64,000 nt of DNA from Alphaproteobacteria bacterium (GTDB lineage Bacteria > Pseudomonadota > Alphaproteobacteria > Bin95). Shown here piece after piece: positions 7,240 through 26,590 of the stretch. Where the stretch lies: positions 79,535 to 143,534 of the forward strand of contig JAURGE010000001.1 in NCBI GenBank assembly GCA_030833925.1, in the 5' to 3' direction. Under the pieces are notes generated by a model. The model worked only from the letters and a program-made list of their open reading frames with translations, was not told the DNA's origin and made no database searches. The stretch's first letter is position 1. Each line of letters opens with the position of its first letter. Made by a program: the position numbers and the translations under genes.

Positions 7240-7494
7240 AATCCTTGAGAAATTTGGTAGATCCAGTCTCCAGGTTTTTAATTTAGAGCCATGTAATCCT
7301 GGTTTTAAATAAACTCATTTGTTTGTGATTGAAGATAGTGTCGGTGTGTCGTGCATTGTTAGGATCTGAAACACGCGTCTGCAGGCTGAAGGACGTTTGC
7401 TTTTCCAGGGGGAAATCTGCAGTCAACTTATCTTTCCTCTACAACCTGAATTTGCGCTAAGGTTTATGTCTACGGATCCAGGGGCCATTTCTCA

Positions 7495-8832: not shown

Positions 8833-8862
8833 TTCCTAGTAAAATATATTTTTATTTGGAAA

Positions 8863-10464: not shown

Positions 10465-10523
10465 TGTATTTCTCCAATCTGGTTCCGTGCCTGAACTAGC
10501 AGATAGTCTGTAGGGCCTTTAAC

Positions 10524-10796
10524 CTAAACTGTCTTTGAACGGGACTTCTGACCCCGAATTAATGCAACATCTCGCTTTGGAACTCCAAAAGATTTAGCAA
10601 CCCAAGCAATTACTGTTGTGTTCGCGACACCATCAACAGGGCGAGCACTGATTTGAAGTTTTAGGCGCGTAATACCCATAGTATCAGTCTCAAAACCTAC
10701 CACTCTAGTATTGGCCGCACCTGGCTGCACTCGTTGGTCAATCAATATAGAGTTGGGGCCCTCTGCACGGGTTATCAAAAACCAGACACAGCCCAC
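10524..10796 (-). CDS. yggU: DUF167/YggU family protein
   Basis: The C-terminal region aligns by eye with E. coli YggU (PVDGxAN...G...SR.K). The ORF overlaps yggT by 22 nt, so the true start may be internal. Confidence 0.55.
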   Translation of the reverse strand: MGCVWFLITRAEGPNSILIDQRVQPGAANTRVVGFETDTMGITRLKLQISARPVDGVANTTVIAWVAKSFGVPKRDVALIRGQKSRSKTV

Positions 10797-11074
10797 TGTC
10801 TAAGAACGCTGCGGATAAAATAGATCACTAAAATGAGGATGACTGGCGATATATCAACGCTGCCAAATTGAGGAACAACACGGCGGATAGGACGAAGCAT
10901 GGGCTCCGTAAGTCGATAAAGAAAATTGCCTACTGTTGATACGAACTGGTTGTGCAAATTAACGACATTAAACGCCACCAACCAACTCAGAATGGCTGAG
11001 ATGATCAATGCCCAGACAACCAATCCAAGAACAATGTCGATCACCTGAAAAAGCGAAATTAGTATAGCATCCAT
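10775..11074 (-). CDS. yggT: YggT family membrane protein
   Basis: Small integral membrane protein with a YggT-like sequence, found in the typical yggT-yggU context. Confidence 0.7.
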   Translation of the reverse strand: MDAILISLFQVIDIVLGLVVWALIISAILSWLVAFNVVNLHNQFVSTVGNFLYRLTEPMLRPIRRVVPQFGSVDISPVILILVIYFIRSVLRQWAVSGF

Positions 11075-11145
11075 TAATTTTGGTCCGTCATCAGCGGCGG
11101 TGTGGGATAGGGAAGCTAACCGCCACCGGTCTTAAGGGCAAGTTT

Positions 11146-12318
11146 TCATGCAGCGAGTTTTAGGATTTCTAATACATCCTCGGGCCCTTTAATCGGCCGA
11201 GGATTTGTATGTATCCAGCGGTCATGCATAGAGAGTTCCGCGCAGCGCTGAAAGTCAGCCTCTGTAACTCCAACTTCTTTTAAGGTGGATGGCATCCCAA
11301 GATCTCGGATGAAATCTTGAATGAGGTCGCTTGCGGGACGCTGCGCATCCCCCATTGCTTCCGAAACTAGGCGCTGACGCTTTTCCGTATCTTTAGAGAG
11401 GTTCCAGCGCATTACATGGGGCAACATTACGCAAGACGTGTGGCCATGAGAGACTCCAAAGCTACCTCCCAAGATATGTCCAATGGCGTGACTGGCCCCC
11501 TTAGAGACGCCAGCTTGAACGCTAGACATGGAAAGCCAAGCGCCCAATTGACTGTCGCTTCTGGCTTGAAGATCTGTCGGATCCGTTTTGGTGCCTTTCA
11601 GGCCAGTGGTTAAAAGTCTCAGGCCATAAAGCGATTGGGCGTCGCAATAGGCATTGGCGGTGGGGGAGCATATAGCCTCTACACAATGGTCAATGGCCCT
11701 TACGCCTGTGGAAAGCCAGAGCCACTCAGGTGTAGGTAGGGTCAATGCTGGATCAAGGATGACTTCGCTAGGAGCCATGCCTTGCGAGCGAATTGCCTGC
11801 TTTATACCTTTCCGAGGATCGGAAACCCCGGCTAGTGGATTGTATTCCCCGGCAGATAAAGTTGTTGGACAACATATCAGTGGTAAAGAAGGTGCCCGGT
11901 ATTCTGGTGCCACTGTCGATCCATCCGCAGCAGTTCGTACAATGAAGGGATCAAAATCCGGAACCTCTTTCAGATCATGCTCAATCGCTAGGCACACAGC
12001 CTTTGCAGCGTCAGTGATCGAGCCGCCACCAATAGTGACAATCATCTCGGCACGTCCCTTGCGCGCACTTTCTGCTGCTTCCAAAACAGCATCCCTCGGT
12101 GTGTGAGGGGGCATTCCTGAGTAGATGCCACAAACTTTGCCATCGAGAGATTCGATTGCGGACTGAATTTCTTGATTGCGTACAACAAGGGCTCGACTTG
12201 CTAGTATAAAAACTCTTGATACCCCGGCTCTCTTTACTGCATCCGCGAGAGCTTCTCCCACTGACATCCCGTAAGTTACTCGTTCAAGTCGTGTGAATGT
12301 CACTGCTCCTGTTTGCAT
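11146..12318 (-). CDS. iron-containing alcohol dehydrogenase family protein (maleylacetate reductase-like)
   Basis: Fe-ADH fold motifs present (GGGSITDAAK, CCPTTLSAGE, a His-rich metal site HAIGH...HGH). The start codon is 5 nt downstream of the carboxyltransferase stop. Confidence 0.75.
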   Translation of the reverse strand: MQTGAVTFTRLERVTYGMSVGEALADAVKRAGVSRVFILASRALVVRNQEIQSAIESLDGKVCGIYSGMPPHTPRDAVLEAAESARKGRAEMIVTIGGGSITDAAKAVCLAIEHDLKEVPDFDPFIVRTAADGSTVAPEYRAPSLPLICCPTTLSAGEYNPLAGVSDPRKGIKQAIRSQGMAPSEVILDPALTLPTPEWLWLSTGVRAIDHCVEAICSPTANAYCDAQSLYGLRLLTTGLKGTKTDPTDLQARSDSQLGAWLSMSSVQAGVSKGASHAIGHILGGSFGVSHGHTSCVMLPHVMRWNLSKDTEKRQRLVSEAMGDAQRPASDLIQDFIRDLGMPSTLKEVGVTEADFQRCAELSMHDRWIHTNPRPIKGPEDVLEILKLAA

Positions 12319-12323
12319 AGTTT

Positions 12324-13871
12324 TTACCCCCGAATACCATGAAGATAGGGACCAGCTTCCCTAAGGGGAGCCGCTGTATTGGCGAAGTCGACTAGATATT
12401 TCCTGGTCTCTCGTGGATCAATAATTTCCTCAATCCAGAACGACTCTGCTGAACGGAAAGGTGACCGTAACTTTTCCAATCTCTCTTCAATTTCGGTCAG
12501 CTTAGCTGCGGGATCAGTAGCATCATCAATATCTGCTCGATAAGCGGCCTCAATTCCCCCCTCAAGCGGCAGAGAGCCCCATCGGCCTGAAGGCCAAGCG
12601 TATCGCATATTAAATCGAGACCCATTTTGGTGGGCTGCACCTGCAACACCAAAACAGTTTCTGACTATTACCGAGCACCATGGGATGGTTGTCTGCCATA
12701 TGGCAGCCATCGCTCGAGTACCTTCTTTGATAGTACCTGACTTTTCACTTTCCAACCCAATCAGGAAGCCAGGGCAATCAACCAGATATATCATTGGGAG
12801 ATGAAAGGTCTGAGCCATATCCACGAACCGCTCTACCTTACGACAAGCATCGGCCGTCCAACCACCGCCGAAGTGATATGGATCACTTGCCATCACTGCA
12901 ACTGGCCACCCGTCAACACGCGCAAGGCCCGTGATTATCGACCGGCCATACATTTTGCCCATCTCAAAGAAGGATCCCTGGTCAACTACTGATTCCACAA
13001 TTGGTCGCATTTTGTAGACCTTACGGATATCTCTTGGGATCGCCTCGATAAGGGATGCGTCATTCCGATCGGGGGAGTCGGAGCTTTGGATTCGCTCAGG
13101 CAGCTCGTAGACGTTTTGTGGTAAATAAGACAGAAAACGGCGGGCCATTTCAAAAGCCTCTTCTTCGGAATCTACCGCTTCGTCAACTGCACCAGCACGC
13201 AGTTGAATTTTCCAACCACCTAGCTGTTGCTTGTCCAAGTCCTGACCTAAACGTTTCACAACTGGTGGCCCCGCAACAAATAGAGCGGATATATCCTTCA
13301 CCATGACTGAATAATGTGCCGCTGCTTGGTGAGCTGCACCAAGGCCAGCAACCGACCCTAATCCAAGGGATACGCGTGGTATTGTACCCATATTGCGCAC
13401 CACCCATTCCCATCCGGAAACACCCGGAACATTGGCCCGGCCTGTAGTCTCGATTGTTTTGACCGAGCCGCCCCCACCTGAGCCTTCCACAATCCTGATC
13501 AAAGGTAACCGGAGTTCATTGGCCATTTGCTCGCACTTTATGTGCTTCTCTTTGATGGTCGCATCTGCTGAGCCGCCGCGGACGGTGAAATCATCCCCAC
13601 CAATCACTACTTGGCGACCGTTTACTCGCCCTCTCCCAAAAACAAAATTGGAGGGAGTGAAATGCTCGAGATCGTTTTTCCCGTCATACTGAGCCATACC
13701 CGCAACTTTTCCGAGTTCATGAAAAGAGCCAGGGTCCAGCATGGCATCGATCCGCTCTCTGACAGTAAGCCTGCCACCATCTTTCTGCCGCTTTATCTTG
13801 TCGGCTCCTCCCATCATCTCCGCGAAATCTTCGCGACGCTTTAATTCATCAAGTTCAGTCTGCCATGACAT
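12324..13871 (-). CDS. acyl-CoA carboxylase carboxyltransferase (beta) subunit family protein
   Basis: 515 aa with both N- and C-terminal carboxyltransferase domains, resembling propionyl-CoA / methylcrotonyl-CoA carboxylase beta chains. No biotin carboxylase or BCCP gene is nearby. Confidence 0.8.
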   Translation of the reverse strand: MSWQTELDELKRREDFAEMMGGADKIKRQKDGGRLTVRERIDAMLDPGSFHELGKVAGMAQYDGKNDLEHFTPSNFVFGRGRVNGRQVVIGGDDFTVRGGSADATIKEKHIKCEQMANELRLPLIRIVEGSGGGGSVKTIETTGRANVPGVSGWEWVVRNMGTIPRVSLGLGSVAGLGAAHQAAAHYSVMVKDISALFVAGPPVVKRLGQDLDKQQLGGWKIQLRAGAVDEAVDSEEEAFEMARRFLSYLPQNVYELPERIQSSDSPDRNDASLIEAIPRDIRKVYKMRPIVESVVDQGSFFEMGKMYGRSIITGLARVDGWPVAVMASDPYHFGGGWTADACRKVERFVDMAQTFHLPMIYLVDCPGFLIGLESEKSGTIKEGTRAMAAIWQTTIPWCSVIVRNCFGVAGAAHQNGSRFNMRYAWPSGRWGSLPLEGGIEAAYRADIDDATDPAAKLTEIEERLEKLRSPFRSAESFWIEEIIDPRETRKYLVDFANTAAPLREAGPYLHGIRG

Positions 13872-14052
13872 CGCCAGTGGCTCCTTTGGGAGGTGGTTTA
13901 ATTAGTTCCATGGTATGACTGAGATGTGAGCGCGCCAATCCAGACTGAGTAATTTAGGTCCAGGATGAATTGGTGTTGGCTACACCTCAAAACACTTCCA
14001 AGGGAAAAGAATAAACAGGTCAAATTTTTTATAGAAGGCCAACCCATTAAAC

Positions 14053-14811
14053 TTAGGGATTGCGTAATGACGGCAACCCGACTCCTACGGCGTCAAATCC
14101 ACCATCTGCAGCCAGGATTTGGCCGGTGATGTAAGAGGCTTTATCGCTCGCAAGAAACACAATTGCCTCAGCAATTTCTCGCTCAGTACCGTAGCGATTC
14201 AGTGGAATTGCATCGTGATAAGCGTCAATAATATCTTGCGTGTGAACCTGTTTTGACATTGCAGTAGCAACAGGGCCTGGGGCGACACAATTTACACGTA
14301 CGCCGTATTCCCCAAGCTCTGCTGCTTGCTGTTTCGTTAAGTGGATTACAGCAGCTTTCGAAGTCCCGTAAGCAACTCTTAGGGTAGATGCCCGAAGCCC
14401 AGAAATTGATCCTATGTTTACTATTGAGCCTCGTGTTTCTTTCAAATATGGAATAGATGCCTGGGCGCAGAGGAAAACCCCATCAAGGTTTGTCTCCATA
14501 ACGCGCCGCCAGCGAGTAAAATCATGCTCCTCTAACGGCCCAAAGTCGGCAACTCCGGCATTATTGACGAGGCAATCGATTCGACCGAAAGACCTAATGG
14601 CCTCTGTCATGATACGGCCCGCATCTTGAGGGTTGGAAACATCGGCCGTTATAGCACTCACATGCGTTAGCTTAGACGCTTCGGCGTCAAGCAGCGCTTC
14701 GAGCCGGTCGACCATTACAACGCTCCAGCCATCAGCAAGAAATAAATCTGTTGTGGTGCGGCCTATTCCTCTTGCGGCGCCTGTAACTATTGCAACTTTT
14801 CTAAATTTCAT
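14053..14811 (-). CDS. SDR family oxidoreductase
   Basis: N-terminal TGAARGIG dinucleotide-binding motif and a catalytic YxxxK (YGTSK). Confidence 0.8.
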   Translation of the reverse strand: MKFRKVAIVTGAARGIGRTTTDLFLADGWSVVMVDRLEALLDAEASKLTHVSAITADVSNPQDAGRIMTEAIRSFGRIDCLVNNAGVADFGPLEEHDFTRWRRVMETNLDGVFLCAQASIPYLKETRGSIVNIGSISGLRASTLRVAYGTSKAAVIHLTKQQAAELGEYGVRVNCVAPGPVATAMSKQVHTQDIIDAYHDAIPLNRYGTEREIAEAIVFLASDKASYITGQILAADGGFDAVGVGLPSLRNP

Positions 14812-16160
14812 GGTTTGGCGATGTCCGTGATTTCGGAGACGTCATCGAGTTCTGCAATTTTCCAGCTCAAGGACGATACTGATTCTGCTTTGTTTCTCGG
14901 CAAAACAAGCTCGGCTTGATCCATAAATTTCTTCTCAAGTGCCTCGATCGACATAGGTTGCTTGAGACTTCCTATGCCATGCTCTATCCGTCGATGGTGG
15001 ATCCTACCGTCAGTCATCTCGATCGTGACATCCGCTCCATCGCGATTAACGCCATTGTCAGCCTGAACGACTATCTTACGTCGAGTCGCTACAACCATTG
15101 GGTTAGCTACCGCATCTTCCGTACCTTCAGAGATGCCAGCAGACTTCATAACGAGAGCTGCAGCTGTCCAATGCTGGAGGCTAACCTGAGCGAGTTGGGC
15201 GTTCGGAGGCTCAGGTCTATCTGTCAGTGTTAGACAAAGGGGGTTTAACCGTAGCCGAATTGCGTTCACTTTTTCCGCATTGAAAGAGGGATCGGCTGCG
15301 ATTTCCAGGCAGGCATCAAGGATTGGATGGATAACAATACCGCATGGATAAGGCTTTGGCATATTTTCCCGCATCTGCCACTTATCACCTAATTCATCTG
15401 TGACATGCTGCAGGTGAGCCTTTGGAGCAAAAACTTCACCAAAACCCTTTGGGCCTTCGAGCGTCGCCGCGGTTGCTGTCACTCCCTCTGCTGCCATTAG
15501 AGCGGCTATATATCCAGCTCGCGATGCTTGGCCGGGTAAAAGGCTAGTGCACATAGACCCATGAGTTTGGCGGAAACCCATCGCCGCGGCAGCTCCAAGT
15601 CCCAGTGCATGCAGCGTCACTTCTTCATTAAATTGCAGTAGGTTAGCCATTGCTGCTGCGGCACCGATAGGGGTCGCTACGCTCGACATGTACCATCCAA
15701 CCTGGGTCTCCGCTGGGGGAACAGTGAGTGCCATGGCAATTCGGCAGGCGACCTCTACGCCAACCGTGAAGGCCGCATGGAGATCTCGGCCCGATGTCAC
15801 CCTTCGTTCTGCTTCAGCCATCAATGGAGCTGCTATTGGACCAGCAGGATGGAGAACGGTCGCGAGGTGAGTGTCATCGAATGCATGGGCTGCTGAAGCT
15901 TGTGCGTTCACCAAAACAGCGTCTGGTGCAGATAGCTTCTCATTTCGACCAAGCAGCGATGTCTTCACCCCTCCGGCAAACGGTAAAACAGTTTTAAATG
16001 TTCGCACTGTTGCATCATGGGTCATCCCACCCAGGGTGCAGCCGATAAAATTGTAGAACTGTTGTGTAGCGTCTTCGCATACTTCATTGGGTAGGTCCGC
16101 AGCCCGGACGTTGGCAACAAAGTTGGCTAACACTTGGGTGGTTTCAATCATTAATTTCAA
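14808..16160 (-). CDS. MmgE/PrpD family protein (2-methylcitrate dehydratase-like)
   Basis: 450 aa with an MmgE/PrpD-like sequence throughout. It overlaps the neighbouring genes by 4 nt on both sides, which suggests one operon. Confidence 0.7.
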   Translation of the reverse strand: MKLMIETTQVLANFVANVRAADLPNEVCEDATQQFYNFIGCTLGGMTHDATVRTFKTVLPFAGGVKTSLLGRNEKLSAPDAVLVNAQASAAHAFDDTHLATVLHPAGPIAAPLMAEAERRVTSGRDLHAAFTVGVEVACRIAMALTVPPAETQVGWYMSSVATPIGAAAAMANLLQFNEEVTLHALGLGAAAAMGFRQTHGSMCTSLLPGQASRAGYIAALMAAEGVTATAATLEGPKGFGEVFAPKAHLQHVTDELGDKWQMRENMPKPYPCGIVIHPILDACLEIAADPSFNAEKVNAIRLRLNPLCLTLTDRPEPPNAQLAQVSLQHWTAAALVMKSAGISEGTEDAVANPMVVATRRKIVVQADNGVNRDGADVTIEMTDGRIHHRRIEHGIGSLKQPMSIEALEKKFMDQAELVLPRNKAESVSSLSWKIAELDDVSEITDIAKP

Positions 16161-17041
16161 ACTCCCAAAAGTTCTGCAACGGCGTCAGAAAAGGCGCGTG
16201 GTGCCTCCTGAGCCACATTATGACCAACCTTTTCCAAGGTTCTTCGCTCATATCCTCCAATGAACTTTTCGGCTTGGCGATCTTTGGTAGGGACTGGATG
16301 TACGCCGTCCGCAAGGCCATGAAGATTAATAGTTGGAACAGATATTACTGGCATCTTGGAGAGTGCAGCTTCGATAGCTCCATACGCAGGATCTGGGTCA
16401 GCGTAGCCGTAGCGCACCCGATAGGACTGAATTACCACATCAACGAAATCCGGGTTTTCGAAACTCGGTGCAGTTTTTAGAAATTCAGCCTCGGTGAAGT
16501 TCCATTCTGGTGACCAGAGCTTCCAAAGCAATCGAGCTAACTCAGTCCGATTGGCCTCAAGACCCGCTCGTCCTCTTGGGGTGTGAAAGTAGTACTGGTA
16601 CCAGTACCGATGTTCTGCTGCTGGGGGTGCTGGATGGATGGAAGCTGCTACATTTTGGATGTTATAACCAGCTCCAGTCACAAGACCCGTGGCTCTTTCA
16701 GGCCATAGCGCTGCAACAACATTAGCGGCGCGCCCACCCCAGTCATATCCTGCTAATACTGCCTGCTCGATTTCCAGGGCATCCATAAGGTCAAGGAGAT
16801 CTGCTCCCAGGGCTGCTTGTTCTCCTGAACGTGGGGTATTGGGGTCGAGGAAAACTGTTTGCCCGTAGCCTCTTAGATAAGGTGTTATCGTTCGGACACC
16901 GCGGTTATTTAGCAAAGGTGCGACTTCAGTAAAGCTCTGAATATCATAGGGGAAGCCATGCAATAGAATGGCTACTCGGCCATCTTTTGGGCCAGTATCA
17001 AAGTAAGCAATTTCCAGCTTTTTAGTTCGAATCTTTTTCAT
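16157..17041 (-). CDS. alpha/beta hydrolase fold protein (epoxide-hydrolase-like)
   Basis: HGFP oxyanion motif and a nucleophile elbow (GYDWGG). The start is set at the MKKIRT Met; the longest ORF would extend to 17098. Confidence 0.7.
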   Translation of the reverse strand: MKKIRTKKLEIAYFDTGPKDGRVAILLHGFPYDIQSFTEVAPLLNNRGVRTITPYLRGYGQTVFLDPNTPRSGEQAALGADLLDLMDALEIEQAVLAGYDWGGRAANVVAALWPERATGLVTGAGYNIQNVAASIHPAPPAAEHRYWYQYYFHTPRGRAGLEANRTELARLLWKLWSPEWNFTEAEFLKTAPSFENPDFVDVVIQSYRVRYGYADPDPAYGAIEAALSKMPVISVPTINLHGLADGVHPVPTKDRQAEKFIGGYERRTLEKVGHNVAQEAPRAFSDAVAELLGV

Positions 17042-17457
17042 CGCGTAAAATCCTCTAACGCGGTGTGGTGCCCATTGGCTTAGCCTGCAAAACAGCAACC
17101 AACGGTAGACAATATCGAGTTCTTATTACAGCCCCAGGTTCTGCTTCGATGTATCAAGTTCAAAAAAATCTATTGCGCATCTGAAAATTTATGTTGGAAA
17201 ATTTGGGGCAGAATTGTTGGTGAAAACCAAGTGGGGCGCAGGTTGCTGCGCTTTTACACACTGTTACATTTTTTAGTCTTAGAAGAAGCCGGTTTCTGAT
17301 AAATGTTTTGTATGAAAAACTTTAATACGAGCCTCAAGAGCCGTATCGGAGTTATTAGAGTTAAACGTTTCCAACAACCCGCTAACAACTTTCCATAAAA
17401 GTCGATTAGCGTAGTCAAACAAGCAAGAAATCAGCCAGGATTAGGATCAACAAGCGG

Positions 17458-18534
17458 ATGGCAAATATTATAAAGATACCAGCGGATGTCGTTCGTAGTC
17501 AGCTTGAAGCGGTGTTTCAGGCCTGGGGTATGCCGAAGGAAAACATAGCAACAACTGTGGATGTTATGGTTGCGACTGACCTTTCAGGCGTTGATAGCCA
17601 TGGTCTTGGCATGTTGCCAGGTTATCACCAAAGGCGTGGCCGCGGCATGATCAAAGATCAGCCAGATATTCGTGTGGTGCGAGATAAGCCAGCTGCCGCC
17701 CTGATAGATGCTGATCGTAGCCTTGGCCATCCACCGTCTGTTATGGCGATGAAACTTGCAATGGAGAAAGCTCGAGCCATGGGAGTGGGTATAGTTTCTG
17801 TTAGAAACTCAAACCATTTTGGAGCAGCGGGCTATTACAGCCGAATGGCCGCCGAGGCAGGTATTGTTGGTATGGCTATGACCAACGCGCCAACCCCTGC
17901 CATGGTACCTACGTTCGGTCGTGATCCGGTTCTTGGCACCAATCCGATTGCCTTTGCTGCCCCAGCCGAAAAGAATCCTCCTTTCAGCTTAGATATGGCA
18001 ACCACAACAGTTGCTGTAGGTAAGCTCAACATAGCTCGTAGGCTTGGAAAGGCCATTCCCAATGGCTGGGCACTAAACACCGATGGCGAGGTGGAAACAG
18101 ATGGTGCAGCTGCTTTCGCCGCCCGACGCTTGACACCCTTAGGTGGAGACCGGGAGCGAGGTAGTCACAAGGGCTATGGGTTGGCGACGATGGTTGAAAT
18201 TCTTTGTGCAACCTTATCTGGTTCTTGGTCAGATGGGCCAGGCCCAGATGGTAAGCCGCAGCGCACTAAGACGAATGTTGGTCACTTCTTCTTAGCGATA
18301 GATCCTTCTAAGGTACGAGCAGATGGGGAATTCGAGGCCGATCTCGACCGAATGATAGATATGCTTCACGCAACCCCACCGGTAGATCCAGAAAATCCTG
18401 TGCAGGTTGCGGGTGATCCAGAAGTTCTGGCTACAGCAACACGTTTGGTAGACGGTATACCAATTGCTGACACTCTCATTGAAGAAGTCCGTAAGGTGGC
18501 AGTCGAGTCGAATGCCCCCTTCCTGCTTGCCTAA
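17458..18534 (+). CDS. Ldh_2 family (malate/L-lactate/sulfolactate dehydrogenase type 2) oxidoreductase
   Basis: Ldh_2 motifs present (DSHGLGMLPGY, NSNHFGAAGYY, GTNPIAFAAP). Confidence 0.75.
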   Translation: MANIIKIPADVVRSQLEAVFQAWGMPKENIATTVDVMVATDLSGVDSHGLGMLPGYHQRRGRGMIKDQPDIRVVRDKPAAALIDADRSLGHPPSVMAMKLAMEKARAMGVGIVSVRNSNHFGAAGYYSRMAAEAGIVGMAMTNAPTPAMVPTFGRDPVLGTNPIAFAAPAEKNPPFSLDMATTTVAVGKLNIARRLGKAIPNGWALNTDGEVETDGAAAFAARRLTPLGGDRERGSHKGYGLATMVEILCATLSGSWSDGPGPDGKPQRTKTNVGHFFLAIDPSKVRADGEFEADLDRMIDMLHATPPVDPENPVQVAGDPEVLATATRLVDGIPIADTLIEEVRKVAVESNAPFLLA

Positions 18535-18537
18535 TGA

Positions 18538-19308
18538 TTAGACTCGGCCAGCTGAAACTCCACCGTCGACCATATACACGCCACCCGTGCAGAAGCTTGA
18601 GTCATCGCTAGCCAAAAATAGCATCATTCGTGCAATTTCTTCTGCCGTTCCATAGCGCTGCATTGGTGTACCTTGGGCCATAGTAGCGTTTACGCCCGCA
18701 CCTGCCGGCACTCCACGCTTTGTCTCTATCTCAAAAATCATATCAGTTTCAGTGGCAGCCGGGTTGACCGTGTTGACCCTAATATCGTGGGCGGCACCCT
18801 CAAGTGCCGCGGAGCGCATCAGCCCTATCACTGCATGTTTCGAGGCCGTGTAGGGGGCGATATTTCTAGTTGCTCGAATGCCTGATGTTGAAGAGGTGCA
18901 AACGATTGATCCTCCCTTAGCGCTCATCGCTTGCATCACATACTTTAGGCCAAGCCATACGCCTCGCACGTTAATTGCCATTAGCCGGTCGAAGGCCTCT
19001 GCCGGATAGTCCGCGAAGGATTTGACTTCGCCTACGATGCCAGCATTTAGAAGTGCTGCATCCACGGCGCCGAAGTGAGCGATTGTCCGAGAAACATAGA
19101 GTTTGGTGGCTTCCTCATCCGACACATCTGCAACTACGTAAGCAGCTTTCTCTTTACCTAACTCGGCAACGAGCTTTGCCATTGGGTCTTCAAGCACATC
19201 AACAAGCATTACGCGCCCACCTTCGCTAGTGAATAACTTGGCCGCCGCTGCACCGATTCCCCTCGCACCACCTGTTATTATTGTGGTTTTACCCTCCATT
19301 TTGCCCAT
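18538..19308 (-). CDS. SDR family oxidoreductase
   Basis: TGGARGIG motif and a catalytic YTASK. Confidence 0.8.
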   Translation of the reverse strand: MGKMEGKTTIITGGARGIGAAAAKLFTSEGGRVMLVDVLEDPMAKLVAELGKEKAAYVVADVSDEEATKLYVSRTIAHFGAVDAALLNAGIVGEVKSFADYPAEAFDRLMAINVRGVWLGLKYVMQAMSAKGGSIVCTSSTSGIRATRNIAPYTASKHAVIGLMRSAALEGAAHDIRVNTVNPAATETDMIFEIETKRGVPAGAGVNATMAQGTPMQRYGTAEEIARMMLFLASDDSSFCTGGVYMVDGGVSAGRV

Positions 19309-19319
19309 TATTTGCTCCT

Positions 19320-20147
19320 CTACGCCGATTTTCTATCCCAGCCCCACCAATCACAAATTGCATCACCCATAACAAGGCGTTGGTCATCTCCATTTAGCCA
19401 TGGGGCGGCAGTAAACATGTCTATACATTCAGTCCAGGAACAGGGCATTTTCGTGATATCAGTCCCCCAGAAAGTTCGCTCTGGTCCAAAGGTTTCGAAT
19501 ACCTGACGCACATAGTCGAGCATTATGGGAAAGGGATATCCTTCGGCTGAATAACCAGGAGCACCCGTCGCTTTTACGGCGATATTTGGGTAACGGGCCA
19601 GCGCCAAAAGCTCAGGCATATGGGTCATGGCGGCGTGGTCTTTTAATGTTGTATTGCCACCGCGGCCTCCCAAGTGGTCGATGGTAATCCTCAAATCCGG
19701 GTGTTTTTCGGCAATCCTTGCAAAAGCAGATAGGCAGTCTGTGCAAAGGGCTGCCACTCGCACTTGGCCCACTTCGGCAGCTTCCCAGATCGGATCAAGA
19801 TCGCCAGAGGAAAGCAGTTCGCGCTCCCGTCCAGCAAGGAATGTGTAGCGAATACCAAGCATACCCGGAGTTTTTCGCAAATTTCGCACTCGATCGACCG
19901 CTCCCGGACCTTCTAGAGGAGGTGAGGCCATGATTGCGAAGCGACCTGGATAGTCTGCAATCGCTTGAATAGCTAGCTGTTCTGACGTGGGGTCCCAGGA
20001 AGGAGGATGAATTACTGCACCGCCGACATTGGCTTCATCCATCAAAGAGATGGCTTCTGGAGCCAAAAAAGATGTTACCTGCCTGTGTGCCATATTTGAT
20101 GGCAGACCCTGTCCCCAAAGATGAATTTGAGCATCAACGATAGACAT
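19320..20147 (-). CDS. amidohydrolase-2 (ACMSD/LigW/LigJ-type metal-dependent hydrolase/decarboxylase) family protein
   Basis: N-terminal VDAQIHLW metal-binding motif and TIM-barrel hydrolase signatures (IDHLG, WGTD). Confidence 0.7.
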   Translation of the reverse strand: MSIVDAQIHLWGQGLPSNMAHRQVTSFLAPEAISLMDEANVGGAVIHPPSWDPTSEQLAIQAIADYPGRFAIMASPPLEGPGAVDRVRNLRKTPGMLGIRYTFLAGRERELLSSGDLDPIWEAAEVGQVRVAALCTDCLSAFARIAEKHPDLRITIDHLGGRGGNTTLKDHAAMTHMPELLALARYPNIAVKATGAPGYSAEGYPFPIMLDYVRQVFETFGPERTFWGTDITKMPCSWTECIDMFTAAPWLNGDDQRLVMGDAICDWWGWDRKSA

Positions 20148-20203
20148 TATTCATTGTTCCCAGCAGACATTGTTTGTTTTAACGCAGAACGCTTAAGGGT
20201 TAT

Positions 20204-21301
20204 TTAGTCGAACATGATGACTGATCGAGCAATTTCACCCTTTTTCATTTCCTCAAAGGCGTCATTCACGTCCTCAAGAGCGATGTGTTGAGAGACTAAC
20301 TCGTCAAGTTTGAGCCTTCGCTGCATGTAGAAATCTATGTAGCGGGGCATATCGACCCTAAAACGATTAGACCCCATCGTCGAACCTTGGATTTTCTTCT
20401 CTCGAAGAAATTCTGGACCATGCAGTTCAATTTTCGTGCCAACCGGAATCATGCCAATAATAGTGGCGGTACCACCTGGTCGGATCATTCTAAAAGCGTC
20501 TTCGGCAGTCTGCTTCAGCCCAATAGCCTCAAAAGCATAATGTACCCCACCTCCTCCGATCAGATTGCGCACTTGCTTTACAGGGTCGCCATCTTTTGGA
20601 TTTACCACATCAGTGGCGCCAAATTCTTTAGCAAGATTGAGCTTTGTCTCGGAAAGATCTATCGCAATAACCCGGCTAGCGCCGGCGATTGCAGCGCCAT
20701 TGATTGCGGATAAACCAACACCCCCACAGCCTATAACGGCAACCGTAGACCCTGCCTCAATACGTGCTGTGTTTTGAACAGCTCCAACACCAGTTGTAAC
20801 GCCACAGCCTATTAGTGCTGCTTTATCTAAAGGCATATCCTCTCGGATTTTGACTGCGGCGTGCTCATGTACAAGCATTCGTTCCGCAAAAGAAGACAGC
20901 TGAGCAAACTGATGAATTTCTGTGCCGCCTTGAGATAGCCGTGGTTTTTCATTTTCACTTCTCATACGAGATGGGCTTTCGCAGAGGCTCATCTTTCCTG
21001 AAAGGCAATACTCGCAATTTCCGCAGAATACTGAGAGGCAGGTAATCACCGTATCCCCGGCCTTAAAGTCAGTGACCTGATCGCCTACAGCCTCGACTAT
21101 GCCTGCACTTTCATGGCCAAGCACGGTTGGATAGCGCCAGGGGTAGGAACCCTCTGCCATGTGTAGATCAGAGTGACAGACACCGCAGGCTTTGGTCTTG
21201 ATGCGAATTTCACGCGGACCTGGGTCATCGACGGTGATGTTTTCAATTGTCAACGGTTGGCCCGTTTCTCTTAAGATGGCGGCTTTGGCTTGAGCGGGCA
21301 T
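20204..21301 (-). CDS. Zn-dependent alcohol dehydrogenase, class III-like (MDR family)
   Basis: Catalytic zinc ligands (CGVCHSD, GHE) and a structural-zinc Cys cluster (CGNCEYCLSGKMSLC). The NAD-binding GCGGVG motif is present. Confidence 0.8.
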   Translation of the reverse strand: MPAQAKAAILRETGQPLTIENITVDDPGPREIRIKTKACGVCHSDLHMAEGSYPWRYPTVLGHESAGIVEAVGDQVTDFKAGDTVITCLSVFCGNCEYCLSGKMSLCESPSRMRSENEKPRLSQGGTEIHQFAQLSSFAERMLVHEHAAVKIREDMPLDKAALIGCGVTTGVGAVQNTARIEAGSTVAVIGCGGVGLSAINGAAIAGASRVIAIDLSETKLNLAKEFGATDVVNPKDGDPVKQVRNLIGGGGVHYAFEAIGLKQTAEDAFRMIRPGGTATIIGMIPVGTKIELHGPEFLREKKIQGSTMGSNRFRVDMPRYIDFYMQRRLKLDELVSQHIALEDVNDAFEEMKKGEIARSVIMFD

Positions 21302-21319
21302 TTGTATCTCCTCAAACTA

Positions 21320-22096
21320 TCAGTTTTTTTTGTTGCCTGCATAGGTGTTGTAAGCAAGTCCAGCCAGCCACCCGTTATCTACGGGCAGTGTAGCCCCGGT
21401 AATGGCTCGAGCTGCATTGCTGCATAGAAAAACAATGGCGTCTGCAATTTCATCTGGTTCTACGATACGGCGAAGCGTTTTTTGATCTTCCATCACAGAA
21501 GTGTCCCGTTCGCCAGCCTCAACCCGTGCTCTTAGGGCTTCAGTCATAACAAATCCGGGGGCTACGGCATTAACGCGAACACCGCGGGGGCCTAAATCCC
21601 CGGCGAGCACTTTAGTTAACTGGTGAATAGCAGCCTTAGATGGACTGTAGGCTGGGAGTGGGAACATCTCAAAACCGGCTATTGAACCAATATTCACAAT
21701 AGAGCCGGTTCCACGCGATGCCATAACTGGACCAAAGGCCCGACAACATAGATAAGTCCCCCGATAGTTAACGTCCCATATACGGTCATGCTCGGCTAGA
21801 TCCATATCCTCAACTCTCGAACCGTTTTGCAGGATACCTGCGCAGTTCACTAGCGTTTCAACATGGCCTTTCGTTTCCGCGGACTGAACTAGGGCAGCAA
21901 CGGATGCTTCGTCCGCTACATCAATTTTAATTGCGCTTGCATCGCCTCCAGAAGCTTTAATGCGGGCGGCTGTCTCTTTGGCGCCGACCTCATTTACATC
22001 AGCAATAACTACGTGATTGCTTACTTTTGCTAGCTTGAGGGAAGTGGCTCTGCCAATTCCACTACCTCCACCGGTGACGACACTAATTTTCTTCAC
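21320..22096 (-). CDS. SDR family oxidoreductase
   Basis: TGGGSGIG motif and a catalytic YSPSK. Confidence 0.8.
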   Translation of the reverse strand: MKKISVVTGGGSGIGRATSLKLAKVSNHVVIADVNEVGAKETAARIKASGGDASAIKIDVADEASVAALVQSAETKGHVETLVNCAGILQNGSRVEDMDLAEHDRIWDVNYRGTYLCCRAFGPVMASRGTGSIVNIGSIAGFEMFPLPAYSPSKAAIHQLTKVLAGDLGPRGVRVNAVAPGFVMTEALRARVEAGERDTSVMEDQKTLRRIVEPDEIADAIVFLCSNAARAITGATLPVDNGWLAGLAYNTYAGNKKN

Positions 22097-22171
22097 TTTG
22101 AGGCCTTTTCTTTGAAATTTTGTAGAAGTGTAGCAGGCTGTTGTTGGAATTCTCTAGCTTAATGACAAAAT

Positions 22172-22777
22172 ATGGAAACCGTTATGCCCCGGAGTGATGA
22201 TCTTCAGTTTTTCTTGGACGAGTTGAAAACTTCGATTGCAAAATGCCAACCCGCACACGAAATTCAATCAGCAACAACTTTGGCATTCCAACGACTCGAA
22301 ACTCTCGGCCAAGAGAAATGGTCGTCGAACCACTCTGAAGCACCGGCAACGGCTTGGCTAGAACAGGCGATCAAAACTGCCAAGGCTGGTCCTACAGGTA
22401 AGCTAGCAGACGCTTTAGAAAATCTAGCCCCTAAGCTTTTTTGGCAGAGACGGATGGATCGACCTTCGATCCATCCCAAATGGCCGAATTCCCACGCAAA
22501 TTCGGTTATCATTGGTGATACTGGCTTGGAATGTAGGAACGACGTTCGTATTGGGGTAAGTCTTCTGGCCCCTTACACCATTTATCCAAACCATCAACAC
22601 CCACCAGAGGAAGTTTACATAGCATTGAGCAATGGATCTTGGCGACAAAACGATGGATTTTGGCAAACCCGTGGTGCGGGTGGGCTTATCTATAATCCGC
22701 CAAATATTGTTCACGCTATGAAGTCTAACTCAGACCCGTTACTCGCAATTTGGATATTGCCTCTCTCACTCCTGTAG
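22172..22777 (+). CDS. cupin-domain protein with a DddK/DddW/DddQ-like metal and Tyr motif (candidate DMSP lyase)
   Basis: 201 aa: an N-terminal ~120-aa helical region plus a cupin. Cupin motif 1 reads H141-x-H143-x3-E147-x-Y149, and the second cupin His is H181 (38 residues after H143). This spacing is the same as DddK (H56/H58/E62/Y64/H96) and DddW (H81/H83/E87/H121). Confidence 0.45.
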   Translation: METVMPRSDDLQFFLDELKTSIAKCQPAHEIQSATTLAFQRLETLGQEKWSSNHSEAPATAWLEQAIKTAKAGPTGKLADALENLAPKLFWQRRMDRPSIHPKWPNSHANSVIIGDTGLECRNDVRIGVSLLAPYTIYPNHQHPPEEVYIALSNGSWRQNDGFWQTRGAGGLIYNPPNIVHAMKSNSDPLLAIWILPLSLL

Positions 22778-22804
22778 GTTGCGTAAAAACCAAAAAATTT
22801 GTTT

Positions 22805-24088
22805 TTAAACCTCATTTTTTGGAGCGTATTTGGCATAGCGCACATCAGCAGTAATTGCGTGGGCAAGCATGCCTTCACTTTCGGAGATGCGACTTATTAC
22901 GGGAGCTATATGCCGACTGGCTTCTGGGGTGAGGCGCTGCCAAGTCACGGTTTTCAGAAATTTACCAACCCAAAGACCACCGGTATAGCGGGCGGCTCTG
23001 CCGGTTGGTAAAATATGATTAGTTCCTACTCCTTTGTCGCCATAAGCGACAGTTGTTGCCTCCCCAACGAAAAGGCTTCCATAATTTGAAAGGTTGGCAA
23101 GATAATAATCGTCGTCTGATGTCATAACTTGCAAATGTTCTGAGGCATATTCATCTGCCATCTCGACAGCTTCTTCTTTGCTTTCGACAATTACAACTTC
23201 GCCGTAATCTCTCCATGCCTGCCGAGCGATCTCTCCTGTAGGAAGTGTCTTAAGTTGCGTTTCGACCTCCTTTAAGACTTCTTCGGCGAGCTTGTGAGAG
23301 GTAGTTATGAGCCAACAAGGACTGTCTGGGCCATGTTCCGCTTGGCCTAGAAGGTCTGTAGCAACTAGAGATGGTGAGACGCTGTCATCCGCTATTATTA
23401 GAGTCTCTGTTGGGCCTGCTAGTTGATCAATCCCACATACCCCAAATAGTTGCCGTTTGGCTTCGGCAACATAGGGATTCCCAGGGCCAATTATTAAATC
23501 TGACGCTGGCATGCCTACCAAGCCATAAGCCATTGCAGCAAGAGCTTGCACGCCCCCTAGGGCGAAAATCTCGTGCGCACCCGCTGCGTGAAAAGCATAT
23601 AGGGTCTGCGGATATACCCCATCTGCGTCTTTTGGTGGGGCACATCCAATTATGGTTCCGACATTGGCAACTGCTGCCACCCCGGCTGACATGATAGAGC
23701 CTGCCACTAAGGGGTATTTACCCCCGGGCGTGTAGCAGCCTGCCACTTTAATTGGAATGTGGCGATGTCCCATTCGAGCCCCAGGTCGAAGCTCAATGTC
23801 AAGCTCTGCCATTGTTTCTCGTTGAGCCTTGGCAAAGTCCTGTACCTGACGTAACGCGAATTTAATATCTTCTTTGAAGGTTTCCGGAAGTATCCGTTCC
23901 ACTTGACGTATGCGGTCTTCGGACATCCGAAATTCAGGATTTTCCCATTTATCGAGGTCATATGCATACTTCCGAATAGCATCATCGCCATTAGTGCGAA
24001 TATCAGCCAACATTTTAGCTACTGTTGCTTCAACAGCTGGTCGGTCGAAGCCTTCTCTTTGGTTGGATTTTTTTAAATAAGTACGCAT
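22805..24088 (-). CDS. histidinol dehydrogenase family protein (HisD paralogue; possibly HpsN-like sulfopropanediol-3-dehydrogenase)
   Basis: 427 aa and HisD-like over its full length. There are no his genes nearby; it sits among catabolic genes and lies 20 bp downstream of a SRAP gene. Confidence 0.7.
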   Translation of the reverse strand: MRTYLKKSNQREGFDRPAVEATVAKMLADIRTNGDDAIRKYAYDLDKWENPEFRMSEDRIRQVERILPETFKEDIKFALRQVQDFAKAQRETMAELDIELRPGARMGHRHIPIKVAGCYTPGGKYPLVAGSIMSAGVAAVANVGTIIGCAPPKDADGVYPQTLYAFHAAGAHEIFALGGVQALAAMAYGLVGMPASDLIIGPGNPYVAEAKRQLFGVCGIDQLAGPTETLIIADDSVSPSLVATDLLGQAEHGPDSPCWLITTSHKLAEEVLKEVETQLKTLPTGEIARQAWRDYGEVVIVESKEEAVEMADEYASEHLQVMTSDDDYYLANLSNYGSLFVGEATTVAYGDKGVGTNHILPTGRAARYTGGLWVGKFLKTVTWQRLTPEASRHIAPVISRISESEGMLAHAITADVRYAKYAPKNEV

Positions 24089-24108
24089 CAGTTCTTGGCC
24101 TCACGAGT

Positions 24109-24792
24109 TCAGAATAGTTTCAATTGTCCCATTGGACTTAATGACTTGGCCGGCTTCAGCAGATCTGGATCATTTTGGTTTACGTTGCCCACTCTTCTAT
24201 CAACTTCAACTAACCTAAAACGATCCTCCGGAGCGGGTTGGATCAGTGACGCCGCATCCGTTGTAGATGCTTTTAGCCAAATATCGAATGCATCCGGCGG
24301 AATAACAACGGGCATCCGATGATGGACGTCTTCCAACAATTTATTTGCCTCTGTTGTGACTATGGTGAAAGTCTCCAAATTTTTTCCATCAGACCCCTGA
24401 CTGGTAGCCCAAAGTCCCGCAAATGCTACTGTCTCGCCAGGGTCTGCAAAGAAAGCTTGTCGCGTGCTCCCCTTTCCTCGCCATTCAAAAAAACCGTCTG
24501 CTGGGACGAGGCAGCGAAAAAGGTTGAAACTTTCCTTGAAACTTGGTTTTTCGGCGATGGTCTCACCGCGGGCATTAATAAGGGGAGGACGGCCGGAATT
24601 GGGGCAAGCCCATTTAGGGACAAGACCCCAGCGGAGCTTTGCAAATGTCCTACTGTCATCTACAGCTCTTACCACTGGTGCTTCGTGAGTGGGAGCAATG
24701 TTCCAGCTTGGTGACAAGTTTGGGAGTTCGATGAAACCGAATAGTTTAGATAGATCACCGATGGGCGTTGTCAGCAGGTATCTTCCGCACAT
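24109..24792 (-). CDS. SOS-response-associated peptidase (SRAP / YedK-like abasic-site processing protein)
   Basis: Starts MCGRY with the conserved Cys2. The rest is SRAP-like (WNIAPT, RWGLVP). Confidence 0.8.
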   Translation of the reverse strand: MCGRYLLTTPIGDLSKLFGFIELPNLSPSWNIAPTHEAPVVRAVDDSRTFAKLRWGLVPKWACPNSGRPPLINARGETIAEKPSFKESFNLFRCLVPADGFFEWRGKGSTRQAFFADPGETVAFAGLWATSQGSDGKNLETFTIVTTEANKLLEDVHHRMPVVIPPDAFDIWLKASTTDAASLIQPAPEDRFRLVEVDRRVGNVNQNDPDLLKPAKSLSPMGQLKLF

Positions 24793-24975
24793 TTCGATTC
24801 AATCCTGGTAAGCTCGATTCTTTAAATAGGCCACTATCCATGGTGGATTGGGGAAGTTATTTACTCACAGGCTTTCTGGGTTACAGGCGTCCGACCAAAT
24901 CGACAATCTATTTCTGTCTGGAGAGCCTCATGTCACAATAGGAACTCAAAGCAATCAAGTTCTTCATAGGACATC

Positions 24976-25425
24976 ATGACAAAAGAACTTTCAGAAGCAG
25001 CGCTCGATCGGATTCATAATGTCATTGCTACGGGACCTTTCGGTCGGCATGTTGGCTTGTCAGTTGATGTCGTTGAGGTTGATCGAGTTGTTTGCCGTAT
25101 GAAGGCTTCGGCCGAGATTATGAATGGACTTAACATTGTCCATGGTGGGGCTACGGCTACACTGATTGATACGGCCGCCACATGTGCCGCTTGGGCGACA
25201 CCAGCTGCAAAGCCAACGACGCGAGGAACAACTGTATCCCTAACCATTAACTACATTGGTCCTGGCCTTGGACGAGATATTTTGGCTGAGGGAAAAGTTG
25301 TCAGTCGAGGTGGGATTCTTACCATCGTTGATGTTGTTGCAACTGATGAAGAAGGTCGTTTAGTTGCTAAGGCACAAGCTACCTATAAGCTTGATTTAGC
25401 CCGAGATCGGCGACTTGAGTCATAA
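24976..25425 (+). CDS. PaaI-type hotdog-fold thioesterase
   Basis: 149 aa with the hotdog-fold HGG motif (NIVHGGATATLID). Confidence 0.7.
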   Translation: MTKELSEAALDRIHNVIATGPFGRHVGLSVDVVEVDRVVCRMKASAEIMNGLNIVHGGATATLIDTAATCAAWATPAAKPTTRGTTVSLTINYIGPGLGRDILAEGKVVSRGGILTIVDVVATDEEGRLVAKAQATYKLDLARDRRLES

Positions 25426-25435: not shown

Positions 25436-26590
25436 CTAGATGCTTAAGTCATCTTTGTTATAGTCCCATATGTCAGCGCGGGCCGCGTCGTCCCATCTGT
25501 ATACCAGCCCGTCCTGAAGGTGTGGCGTGTATTGATAGGGCGTTTCATCAGGGAATCGCTGACGGCGCGCATCGATTGCATAGCCCAGCATTCGTGCCCT
25601 GCGCGTGATACGCTCTCCGGTATAAACCGCACGAGCGTTGTGGAGGCCACCCGCCTCGATATTCAATACCGATGACCGACGGTGAAAGCCCATGTTTACG
25701 GTAACTCTCCAGTCTTTGCTGGTATTAGCGAAGCTGCCATGGATTGCTTGCCGATTTGTCATTGCTACATCACCGGGAGCGCAAATAATTGGAACGGCAT
25801 CAGGAAGGCGGTCCGAGCCTGCCTTTGCAGCCATCGCTGGAATATCAACGTGGCGCTTCTTGTGGCTACCTGGCACAACCCAAACCCCATTTGCCGCCGT
25901 GCACCCGTAAACCTGGCCCATAAAATTGAAACCATGCACACCTTCATCCCACTTAGGTGAGTCATAGTGGGTCAACCCATCCCGATGCCAAGCAACTGAA
26001 GCACCAAGGCCTGGTGCTTTGATAAACAAACCCTCATTAAAGGGAGTGAAATCTTCGCCGTTTATGGCCGCAGCGATACGAAGCAAATCTGGGTGGCCAT
26101 AGGCGCGCAGACAAGCATCCGAATATTGAAGCGAGCCAATAATGAGATAAACTACTTCTTCAGGCACACCTTTTTCTGGCGTGGGTTCGTGCATTTTTAC
26201 TGGATGGCGCCCCCCGGCCAAGTTGGTTCCCCCAAAAGGGTCTGCTAAAGGCTTTGACCAGAAAAAGTTTCTTCCACCCTGCTCGACCCCCATAGCTAAC
26301 TCGCCTCTGGAGTCCAAATTTGCCCCTTGTGCCACTGGCAGTCTTGTTTGGATGAGATGAACGTCTTCCTCTAGGTCTTTGATTTCTTCGGGGCGGAGCA
26401 CATTCTGGAAAACATAGAACCCAACGCGCCAGTAAGCTTCAATAATTTCGGGATGCAACTCACCTGTTTCCGTAAACCGCACAGGACCCCGGTTGCCAAG
26501 CTCCATAGCGCGCGCTTCACCCTCCGTCAGATATTCCTGAAAGGCTACTTCATCATCTTTAGGGGTCTTGGTGGAGGTTTTAAGCATCAA
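25436..26590 (-). CDS. phytanoyl-CoA dioxygenase (PhyH) family Fe(II)/2OG oxygenase
   Basis: HxD iron-binding motif (WHRDG) plus a distal His. At 384 aa it is larger than typical PhyH proteins. Confidence 0.6.
   Translation of the reverse strand: MMLKTSTKTPKDDEVAFQEYLTEGEARAMELGNRGPVRFTETGELHPEIIEAYWRVGFYVFQNVLRPEEIKDLEEDVHLIQTRLPVAQGANLDSRGELAMGVEQGGRNFFWSKPLADPFGGTNLAGGRHPVKMHEPTPEKGVPEEVVYLIIGSLQYSDACLRAYGHPDLLRIAAAINGEDFTPFNEGLFIKAPGLGASVAWHRDGLTHYDSPKWDEGVHGFNFMGQVYGCTAANGVWVVPGSHKKRHVDIPAMAAKAGSDRLPDAVPIICAPGDVAMTNRQAIHGSFANTSKDWRVTVNMGFHRRSSVLNIEAGGLHNARAVYTGERITRRARMLGYAIDARRQRFPDETPYQYTPHLQDGLVYRWDDAARADIWDYNKDDLSI

Follow-up and report, generated by a model that had tools for sequence, protein, structure and literature searches.

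The subject of this analysis is a cupin gene in a 64,000-nucleotide stretch of the alphaproteobacterial contig JAURGE010000001.1 (assembly GCA_030833925.1, positions 79,535 to 143,534 of the forward strand), hereafter called the window. The gene lies at 22172-22777 on the plus strand and encodes a protein of the family PF16867 (DMSP_lyase, or Cupin-DLL). An earlier note on this DNA, made from the letters alone, had read the product as a candidate lyase of dimethylsulfoniopropionate (DMSP) carrying the metal and tyrosine motif of DddK, DddW and DddQ. Translation and residue counting confirmed its open reading frame of 201 amino acids, the residues H141, H143, E147, Y149 and H181, and the +38 spacing from H143 to H181. 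The N-terminal helical extension that it had likened to that of DddQ was found to comprise about 107 amino acids, with four predicted helices that aligned with the DddQ N-domain. The features of the locus are as follows.

22172..22777, plus strand: complete coding sequence of the PF16867 (DMSP_lyase / Cupin-DLL) protein, an open reading frame of 201 amino acids from the first ATG (22172), from which all residue numbers are counted; stop codon at 22775-22777
22172..22492, plus strand: predicted N-terminal four-helix domain, DddQ-like, amino acids 1-107 (predicted helices; alignment with the DddQ N-domain)
22442-22444, plus strand: codon of the invariant W91 (alignment of 24 homologues)
22493..22774, plus strand: predicted C-terminal cupin beta-barrel, amino acids 108-201 (predicted strands 108-197; weak Cupin_2 match at 132-195; fold matches to cupins)
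22583..22618, plus strand: cupin motif 1, Y138-P-N-H141-Q-H143-P-P-E146-E147-V-Y149 (residue counting)
22694..22714, plus strand: cupin motif 2, N175-P-P-N-I-V-H181, with H181 at 22712-22714 (residue counting)
22736..22762, plus strand: last beta-strand, P189-L-L-A-I-W194-I-L-P197, with W194 present in at least 90% of the 24 homologues
22097..22171, no strand: 75-bp divergent intergenic region common to the cupin gene and a minus-strand short-chain dehydrogenase/reductase (SDR) gene (from position)

The motif is more than a chance resemblance: the protein matched PF16867 with 141.5 bits (E 2.7e-41, profile positions 10-162 of 162), compared with a gathering cut-off of 27 bits, and its five motif residues (H141, H143, E147, Y149 and H181), together with W91 and also P139, were invariant in 24 homologues. 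The Cupin-DLL superfamily has been defined by PF16867 and six residues, namely those of HxHx3ExY, a second-motif histidine and a tryptophan at the end of motif 2 (bioRxiv 10.1101/161257). The window protein has the H-x-H-x3-E-x-Y motif 1, the second-motif histidine and the DddQ-type fold, a helical N-domain joined to a cupin barrel, and belongs to this superfamily. Its AlphaFold2 model (pLDDT 93.9, pTM 0.91) places the helices of the N-domain at residues 9-24, 29-41, 58-71 and 76-88, with pLDDT mostly above 90, and the barrel at 108-197. The top six Foldseek matches in the PDB were all DddQ, with a TM score of about 0.7 over 190-205 columns. A single-sequence search of the PDB matched DddK and DddQ chains weakly (E about 5e-5), and a profile built from the protein and 23 homologues (the clade profile) reached the DddQ structures at E 1e-15, spanning both domains. 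This profile scored 61.5 bits for DddQ of Ruegeria pomeroyi (5CU1), 60 bits over amino acids 35-196 for that of Roseovarius nubinhibens (4B29), 38 bits for that of Ruegeria lacuscaerulensis, and about 20 bits for DddK and DddY. The kinship to Ddd cupins that had been suggested was borne out across both domains for DddQ, and for DddK and DddY at the cupin core only. No chain of DddL, DddU or DddW was among the PDB sequence or fold matches. NCBIfam returned no match at E<=1, and therefore no curated equivalog exists there for this protein; readings as a ChrR-like Cupin_7 protein or a quercetin dioxygenase were rejected, with only weak or generic cupin matches to recommend them.

Motif 1 could be aligned column by column with DddQ 5cu1 (YPFHQHPAEEIY) and 5jso (YDWHSHQAEELY). 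The aligned DddQ residues are Tyr120, His123, His125, Glu129, Tyr131 and His163, of which Tyr120 pairs (in MAFFT) with Y138, a conserved aromatic position. The DddK ligands aligned as well, and the positions quoted earlier for DddK (H56/H58/E62/Y64/H96, counted from the PDB alignment) and for the ligands of DddW (H81/H83/E87/H121; given, together with Y89, in PMC4437653) proved to be correct. H181 aligns with H180/H163 of DddQ and H96 of DddK, and its +38 distance from H143 is the commonest spacing in the family (200 of about 300 members sampled). W91 aligns with the tryptophan of EWR, QWR or HWK segments in the three DddQs. The register of the C-terminal tryptophan differs between alignments: W194 is paired with the tryptophan of DddK YWIFP in the PDB alignment and with a DddQ tryptophan by MAFFT, whereas HMMER sets DddQ W195/W178 opposite P197.

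The roles of tyrosine, histidine and glutamate in DddQ- and DddW-type sites have been described (bioRxiv 10.1101/161257; PMC4437653). By homology to DddQ, DddK, DddW and DddU, we infer the metal binding, the chemistry and the substrate class of the window protein. H143 and E147 would be metal ligands and H181 the third metal-binding histidine, with H141 and Y149 beside the metal and Y149 as the proposed catalytic base. The protein is envisaged as a cytoplasmic, single-metal, two-domain enzyme built like DddQ, with the four-helix N-domain packed on the cupin barrel. H143, E147 and H181, aided by H141 and Y149, would coordinate a transition metal (in relatives Fe, Mn, Zn or Ni) to which the carboxylate of a small zwitterionic substrate could bind; Y149 would then abstract the proton alpha to the carboxylate and the beta leaving group would depart. 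With DMSP as the substrate, this reaction would yield dimethylsulfide (DMS) and acrylate.

To place the protein within PF16867, a neighbor-joining tree was computed from 262 sequences that included three DddQs; DddL, DddU and DddW were not among the sequences compared. The three DddQs fell outside all 258 other sequences, and the window protein nested with two metagenomic proteins (P0001 and P0002), then within an 11-member group and then within an 85-member clade that includes proteins of rhizobia, Paracoccus and Rhodobacterales at 37-44% identity. Identity to DddQ was 24-31% in the multiple alignment and 18-21% in the structure-based one. An exhaustive HMMER search of 1.84 billion representatives of 50%-identity clusters brought up 2022 members of the family with E<=1e-3, of which 193 reached E<=1e-30; the best 150 of these 193 all scored at least 149 bits with the clade profile, compared with 38-61 bits for DddQ. 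The PF16867 model itself gave 141.5 bits for the window protein, 187.6 for a protein of Rhizobium johnstonii pRL12, 148 for one of the Rhodobacteraceae and 118.8 for one of Pseudomonas, compared with 59-76 for DddQ fragments taken from PDB alignments and 22, under the cut-off, for DddK. The Pfam 'DMSP_lyase' model is centered on proteins without a measured function, and alignment and tree assign the window protein to a large, experimentally uncharacterized core clade of PF16867 that is distinct from DddQ, DddK/DddW and DddY. Its 65%-identical orthologue cluster carries the NCBI name 'dimethylsulfonioproprionate lyase family protein [Rhodospirillales bacterium]', which is also found on Pseudomonas and rhizobial members; the gene is a further member of a known family, whose orthologues are already labeled by standard annotation pipelines.

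A scan of one genome per species for the clade signature (HPPEE[VI]Y and N[PR]P[ND]I[VI]H[AS]M) found it in 196 species. The closest were two Rhodospirillales metagenome-assembled genomes (MAGs), at 65% and 64% identity, and the remainder, at 37-53%, were mainly soil-type alphaproteobacterial MAGs, Acetobacteraceae, Hyphomicrobiales, Mesorhizobium, Ensifer and Labrys, with a few marine lineages (Saanich Inlet Rhodospirillaceae, Granulosicoccus) and a few Actinomycetes. A homologue was also present in 253 plasmid records, mostly of Rhizobium and Sinorhizobium and including pSymB of S. meliloti 1021. The clade is thus predominantly one of soil, rhizosphere and plant-associated taxa (Alphaproteobacteria and Pseudomonas). 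A separate, uncharacterized PF16867 clade is abundant in marine metagenomes (P0076, P0079, a cluster of 506 members, and P0089; also at 6001-6684 of L090-L092) and is characterized by gene calls of 167-231 amino acids, the motif HSHPPPELY and a histidine spacing of +40. Its 227-amino acid members P0076 and P0079 were considered as DddL and rejected: acuR-acuI is lacking, and the neighbors are a major facilitator superfamily (MFS) transporter and an AMP-dependent ligase.

In the window, the cupin gene stands alone on its strand. Across the 75-bp region it diverges from a minus-strand block of SDR, zinc-dependent alcohol dehydrogenase (Zn-ADH), Amidohydro_2 and SDR genes, as described earlier, and at 27 bp it converges with a histidinol-dehydrogenase (HisD)-family gene (22805-24088, minus strand). 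For this neighborhood it is an ordinary gene, which would code for a stand-alone accessory enzyme and is located on a chromosomal stretch of a Rhodospirillales-like bacterium. A promoter scan of 22097..22171 returned no sigma-70-like match; judged from position alone, this region presumably carries the promoters of both flanking genes. Nothing resembling a Shine-Dalgarno sequence precedes the first ATG at 22172. A second ATG (M5, nucleotide 22184) has GGAA 6 nucleotides upstream and would give 197 amino acids. The metagenomic copy P0001, which is 99% identical, begins at M5 in gene calls, and M5 is perhaps the true start.

Genomic context was read from most open reading frames of at least 180 amino acids in the window and from all of those from 8.8 to 26.6 kb. 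Among them were no acuI, acuN, acuK, prpE, dddA or dddC and no transporter of the betaine or DMSP type, the only ATP-binding cassette (ABC) system found being of the Zn/Mn type. The adjacent Zn-ADH scored 46 bits against the YhdH/AcuI family, for which the cut-off is 297, and is not AcuI. Across 80 loci no conserved neighbor of the cupin gene was found. Among close relatives, the gene order of the window is kept in five assemblies (L001, L002, L086, L087 and L094), in all of which the reading frame is intact. Compared with L001, the neighboring proteins are mostly 86-97% identical and the cupin 65%, and its rate of nonsynonymous substitution (dN 0.24) is the highest of the 13 syntenic genes (window 12324-25425). 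The ratio to synonymous substitution (dN/dS) is about 0.1, with dS saturated, and the gene is under purifying selection. Change is concentrated in the N-domain, which is 53% identical to that of P0002, compared with 78% for the cupin half.

Several other features of this neighborhood were recorded. The SRAP gene at 24109-24792 (68% identity to L001) and the cupin gene stand apart from the other 11 syntenic genes in their much faster evolution. A catabolic-looking block on both strands (14053-22096) encodes an SDR, an MmgE/PrpD-family protein, an alpha/beta hydrolase, an Ldh_2 protein, an SDR, an Amidohydro_2 protein, a class-III-like Zn-ADH and an SDR. This block is kept in L001 and L002 and is not beside the cupin gene in three loci with 48-49%-identical proteins (L006-L008), in which a carboxyltransferase and an enoyl-CoA hydratase are still found near it. 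At 25436-26590 on the minus strand lies a gene for a 384-amino acid PhyH-family (phytanoyl-CoA dioxygenase-like) protein with no NCBIfam match, adjoining a hotdog thioesterase gene and an open reading frame of DksA/TraR size.

On balance, and with modest confidence, we favor the reading that the gene encodes a functional lyase-type enzyme under purifying selection that would probably show some DMSP cleavage in vitro, with DMSP lysis more likely a side activity than the native role; its native substrate may be a related osmolyte of the onium or betaine type. Cleavage in vitro is plausible because nothing required for it is missing. A dedicated role as a DMSP lyase is less likely because the clade is mostly non-marine, DMSP and acrylate genes are not linked to the gene, DddQ is a poor lyase and relatives lie among betaine-catabolism genes. 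The earlier note had regarded the ExY tyrosine as characteristic of cupin DMSP lyases, and this part of its argument did not survive: HxHx3ExY and the second histidine define the whole Cupin-DLL superfamily (bioRxiv 10.1101/161257). Because the superfamily is defined by these same residues and its members are mostly not DMSP lyases, the tyrosine marks the superfamily and not the activity. In the same study, only DddY and DddL were considered to look like native DMSP lyases, and DddQ was judged promiscuous, with a kcat/KM below 1 M-1 s-1 and a probable tie to the breakdown of proline betaine or hydroxyproline betaine. Of the proposal of a candidate DMSP lyase, the family and the intact active site therefore stand, whereas the protein is no orthologue of DddQ, DddK or DddY, has no acrylate or DMSP neighbors among the reading frames scanned and belongs to a clade drawn mainly from soils and plants. 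It is a plausible, unproven DMSP lyase, any such activity of which would probably be promiscuous, and DMSP lysis is no more likely than the alternative that the note had itself raised, of a lyase or isomerase acting on another small substrate.

The strongest competing explanation is that the protein is a genuine physiological DMSP lyase, either a new Ddd-type family or a distant relative of DddU or DddL, with which a marine Rhodospirillales bacterium would cleave imported DMSP to DMS and acrylate. Several observations speak for it, and some of them also weigh against the reading that we favor. As judged from the alignments, all residues needed for cleavage in DddQ, DddK, DddW and DddU appear to be present, in a complete Cupin-DLL catalytic set on a DddQ-like fold, and no feature of the sequence speaks against real lyase activity. 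The gene is syntenic and under purifying selection in related MAGs, and part of the clade, including the Saanich Inlet Rhodospirillaceae and Granulosicoccus, comes from marine bacteria. DddU sets a precedent, having been a mere annotated 'DMSP lyase family protein' with less than 15% identity to known lyases before it proved to be a genuine, DMSP-induced lyase (PMC11497337), and the clade might be close to DddU or DddL. The lack of a conserved context is, moreover, weak negative evidence, and the context of DddL is likewise unconserved (bioRxiv 10.1101/161257). Nevertheless, neither acrylate genes nor a DMSP/betaine transporter or regulator is adjacent to the gene or among the reading frames scanned, most of the clade is not marine, the nearest characterized relative, DddQ, is an extremely poor lyase, and the cupin is the least conserved of the 13 syntenic genes. 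We therefore regard a dedicated DMSP lyase as rather unlikely.

The contexts of distant relatives suggest another possible substrate class. In five loci (L083, L084, L085, L089 from pRL12, 6907-12042, and L093 from pPAN2, 3605-8000), belonging to S. meliloti pSymB, Rhizobium sp. K102, R. johnstonii pRL12, Phyllobacterium and Paracoccus pantotrophus pPAN2, a homologue is located directly downstream of a gene for a 679-amino acid flavoenzyme. In pPAN2 this flavoenzyme is named HpbA (N-methyl-L-proline N-demethylase) by the NCBI annotation pipeline PGAP, and the role of hpbA has been demonstrated genetically (PMC3950512). Of these loci, three (Rhizobium sp. K102, L084; pRL12, L089; pPAN2, L093) have etfB-etfA after the cupin gene, and a divergent TetR gene and a glycine-betaine/proline (ProU-type) ABC transporter are present where annotated. 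Nearby are formaldehyde detoxification genes (K102 and pRL12), hydroxyproline-catabolic genes (pRL12) and an MR/MLE (HpbD-like) gene (pPAN2). The rhizobial operon also encodes a second PF16867 paralogue of 231 amino acids (86.8 bits; L089, 11347-12039, plus strand, and L084, 10407-11099), which in pRL12 lacks every catalytic residue, with HVQTQPRAF in place of HxHxxxExY and the motif-2 histidine gone; it is probably either a relic or a partner without catalytic activity. A different context was found in two Rhodobacterales MAGs (L057, 8427-14876, and L070), in which a 40-44%-identical homologue lies in the dcw cluster between murD and ftsW-murG-murC, a position that echoes the peptidoglycan-gene context reported for dddW (bioRxiv 10.1101/161257). 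The hpbA-type and dcw contexts are both absent at the window locus.

The linkage of hpbA and the cupin gene in rhizobia and Paracoccus, with etfBA in three of five loci, fits the link between DddQ and proline betaine and is the reason for suggesting, tentatively and as a possibility short of probable, that the native reaction of the core clade is not DMSP lysis and would instead be a metal- and tyrosine-dependent conversion of a nitrogen betaine or N-methyl imino acid. Applied to the window gene itself, this becomes the explanation that the protein serves nitrogen-betaine catabolism (related to proline betaine, hydroxyproline betaine or N-methylproline), with DMSP lysis only a family-wide side reaction. 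It draws on homologues of about 40% identity placed directly after an hpbA-type gene, on the betaine transporter, formaldehyde, hydroxyproline and MR/MLE genes around them, on the genetically demonstrated function of hpbA (PMC3950512) and on the independent tie of DddQ to proline-betaine and hydroxyproline-betaine genes (bioRxiv 10.1101/161257). The window, however, was without hpbA, etf, MR/MLE or ProU-type genes in tblastn and open reading frame scans, and of the 80 closest genome loci a single one (L079, Ensifer) has the hpbA context. Moreover, we know of no cupin reaction in the N-methylproline pathway, and alpha-betaines are without a beta leaving group. For the window gene this explanation is improbable.

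Two neighbors of the cupin gene resemble enzymes of sulfonate metabolism. The HisD-family protein of 22805-24088 (minus strand) shares 50.7% identity, along 99% of its length, with the product of the gene that PGAP names hpsN (sulfopropanediol 3-dehydrogenase) in Cupriavidus pinatubonensis, and the best NCBIfam match of the Ldh_2 gene (17458-18534, plus strand) is L-sulfolactate dehydrogenase, at 261 bits compared with a cut-off of 500. A 2,3-dihydroxypropane-1-sulfonate (DHPS)/sulfolactate locus around the cupin was nevertheless rejected, since the identity of the SDRs and the Zn-ADH to HpsO and HpsP is only 26-29%, compared with 51% for the HisD-like protein and HpsN. That the cupin acts with these two dehydrogenases as a lyase performing beta elimination on an organosulfonate such as 3-sulfolactate would agree with their matches and with sulfite elimination from sulfolactate, which may be mechanistically analogous to DMSP lysis, but many genes annotated hisD are just as similar to the HisD-like protein, the Ldh_2 score is far below its cut-off, the other window enzymes are poor matches to HpsO and HpsP, such neighbors are absent beside the cupin in other lineages, and the cupin diverges far faster than the HisD-like gene (65% versus 92% identity); we consider it very unlikely. 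A non-enzymatic role, as a ligand-sensing or regulatory cupin or a decaying gene, is scarcely credible. In its favor, some old records call rhizobial homologues 'transcriptional regulator', the gene is the fastest evolving of its neighborhood and pRL12 has the degenerate paralogue without any of the ligands. Against it, Pfam shows no DNA-binding domain in the protein, no metal or catalytic residue varies within the clade, dN/dS is about 0.1 and an undisrupted frame was read in five independent assemblies.

DMS, which DMSP lyases release, is a climate-relevant gas, and counts of the lyase genes are used to infer which microbes produce it. Several genomics papers take PF16867 hits directly as evidence of DMSP-lyase potential. 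Since PF16867 fits an uncharacterized, largely terrestrial clade better than it fits DddQ, such hits need an assay before they are taken to represent DMS producers. Were the betaine explanation true, marine and coral genomics would be over-reading PF16867 hits as 'DMSP lyase'. For the native function of Cupin-DLL enzymes, the recurrent linkage of hpbA and the cupin gene offers a concrete lead that is tractable by genetics.

Compared with the known DMSP lyases, the window protein is, on sequence and tree, not an orthologue of DddQ, DddK or DddY. It is 18-31% identical to DddQ (R. pomeroyi 5CU1, R. lacuscaerulensis 4LA2/5JSO, R. nubinhibens 4B29), whose members branch outside the sampled clade and whose C-terminal tryptophan may be 2-3 residues out of register. 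The DddQ neighborhood contains mandelate-racemase-like and dimethylglycine-dehydrogenase-like genes (bioRxiv 10.1101/161257); tblastn with an MR/MLE protein found no match in the window, and the Pfam scan of the neighbors returned SDR, ADH, amidohydrolase and HisD-like proteins. DddK (Pelagibacter, 5TFZ/6A53) and DddW (R. pomeroyi) share the motif-1 pattern and the +38 spacing, and the YWIFP strand of DddK resembles the C-terminal W-I-x-P strand of the window protein, but both are small single-domain cupins without the N-terminal helical domain that the window protein has, and the similarity of DddK, like that of DddY, to the window clade is limited to the cupin core. DddY has a large cap domain and a solved chain (5XKX/5Y4K) of about 400 amino acids, twice the length of the window protein, and its similarity is confined to motif 1 (20 bits, 5xkx). 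DddY neighborhoods contain acrylate-utilization genes (bioRxiv 10.1101/161257), whereas no such acu-type neighbors of the cupin were among the window reading frames scanned, and the acuR-acuI context of some dddL loci is likewise absent at this locus.

DddU of Amylibacter cionae H-12, which was compared by description only, has the ligands H146/E150/Y152/H185 and a DddQ-like predicted fold, and its gene belongs to an acuN/acuK/prpE-like cluster that is induced by DMSP and also encodes a LysR regulator and an ABC transporter (PMC11497337). Its residue numbering is close to H143/E147/Y149/H181 of the window protein, but its histidine spacing is +39 instead of +38 and a cluster of this type is absent from the window. 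When DddU was sought by residue numbering and spacing among 313 family members, four sequences with +39 were found, none of which fits H146/H185. Close parallels, likewise uncharacterized, are the hpbA-linked PF16867 proteins (WP_011649282.1 on R. johnstonii pRL12; S. meliloti pSymB 1107432-1107983), which share the 85-member clade, the length and the motifs of the window protein at 37-44% identity; they follow hpbA in betaine-transport loci, whereas the window gene is a monocistronic unit flanked by dehydrogenase genes unrelated to these. For PF16867 as a whole, the family name reflects an activity measured in a few branches only, and it is the branch of the window protein that fits the Pfam model best.

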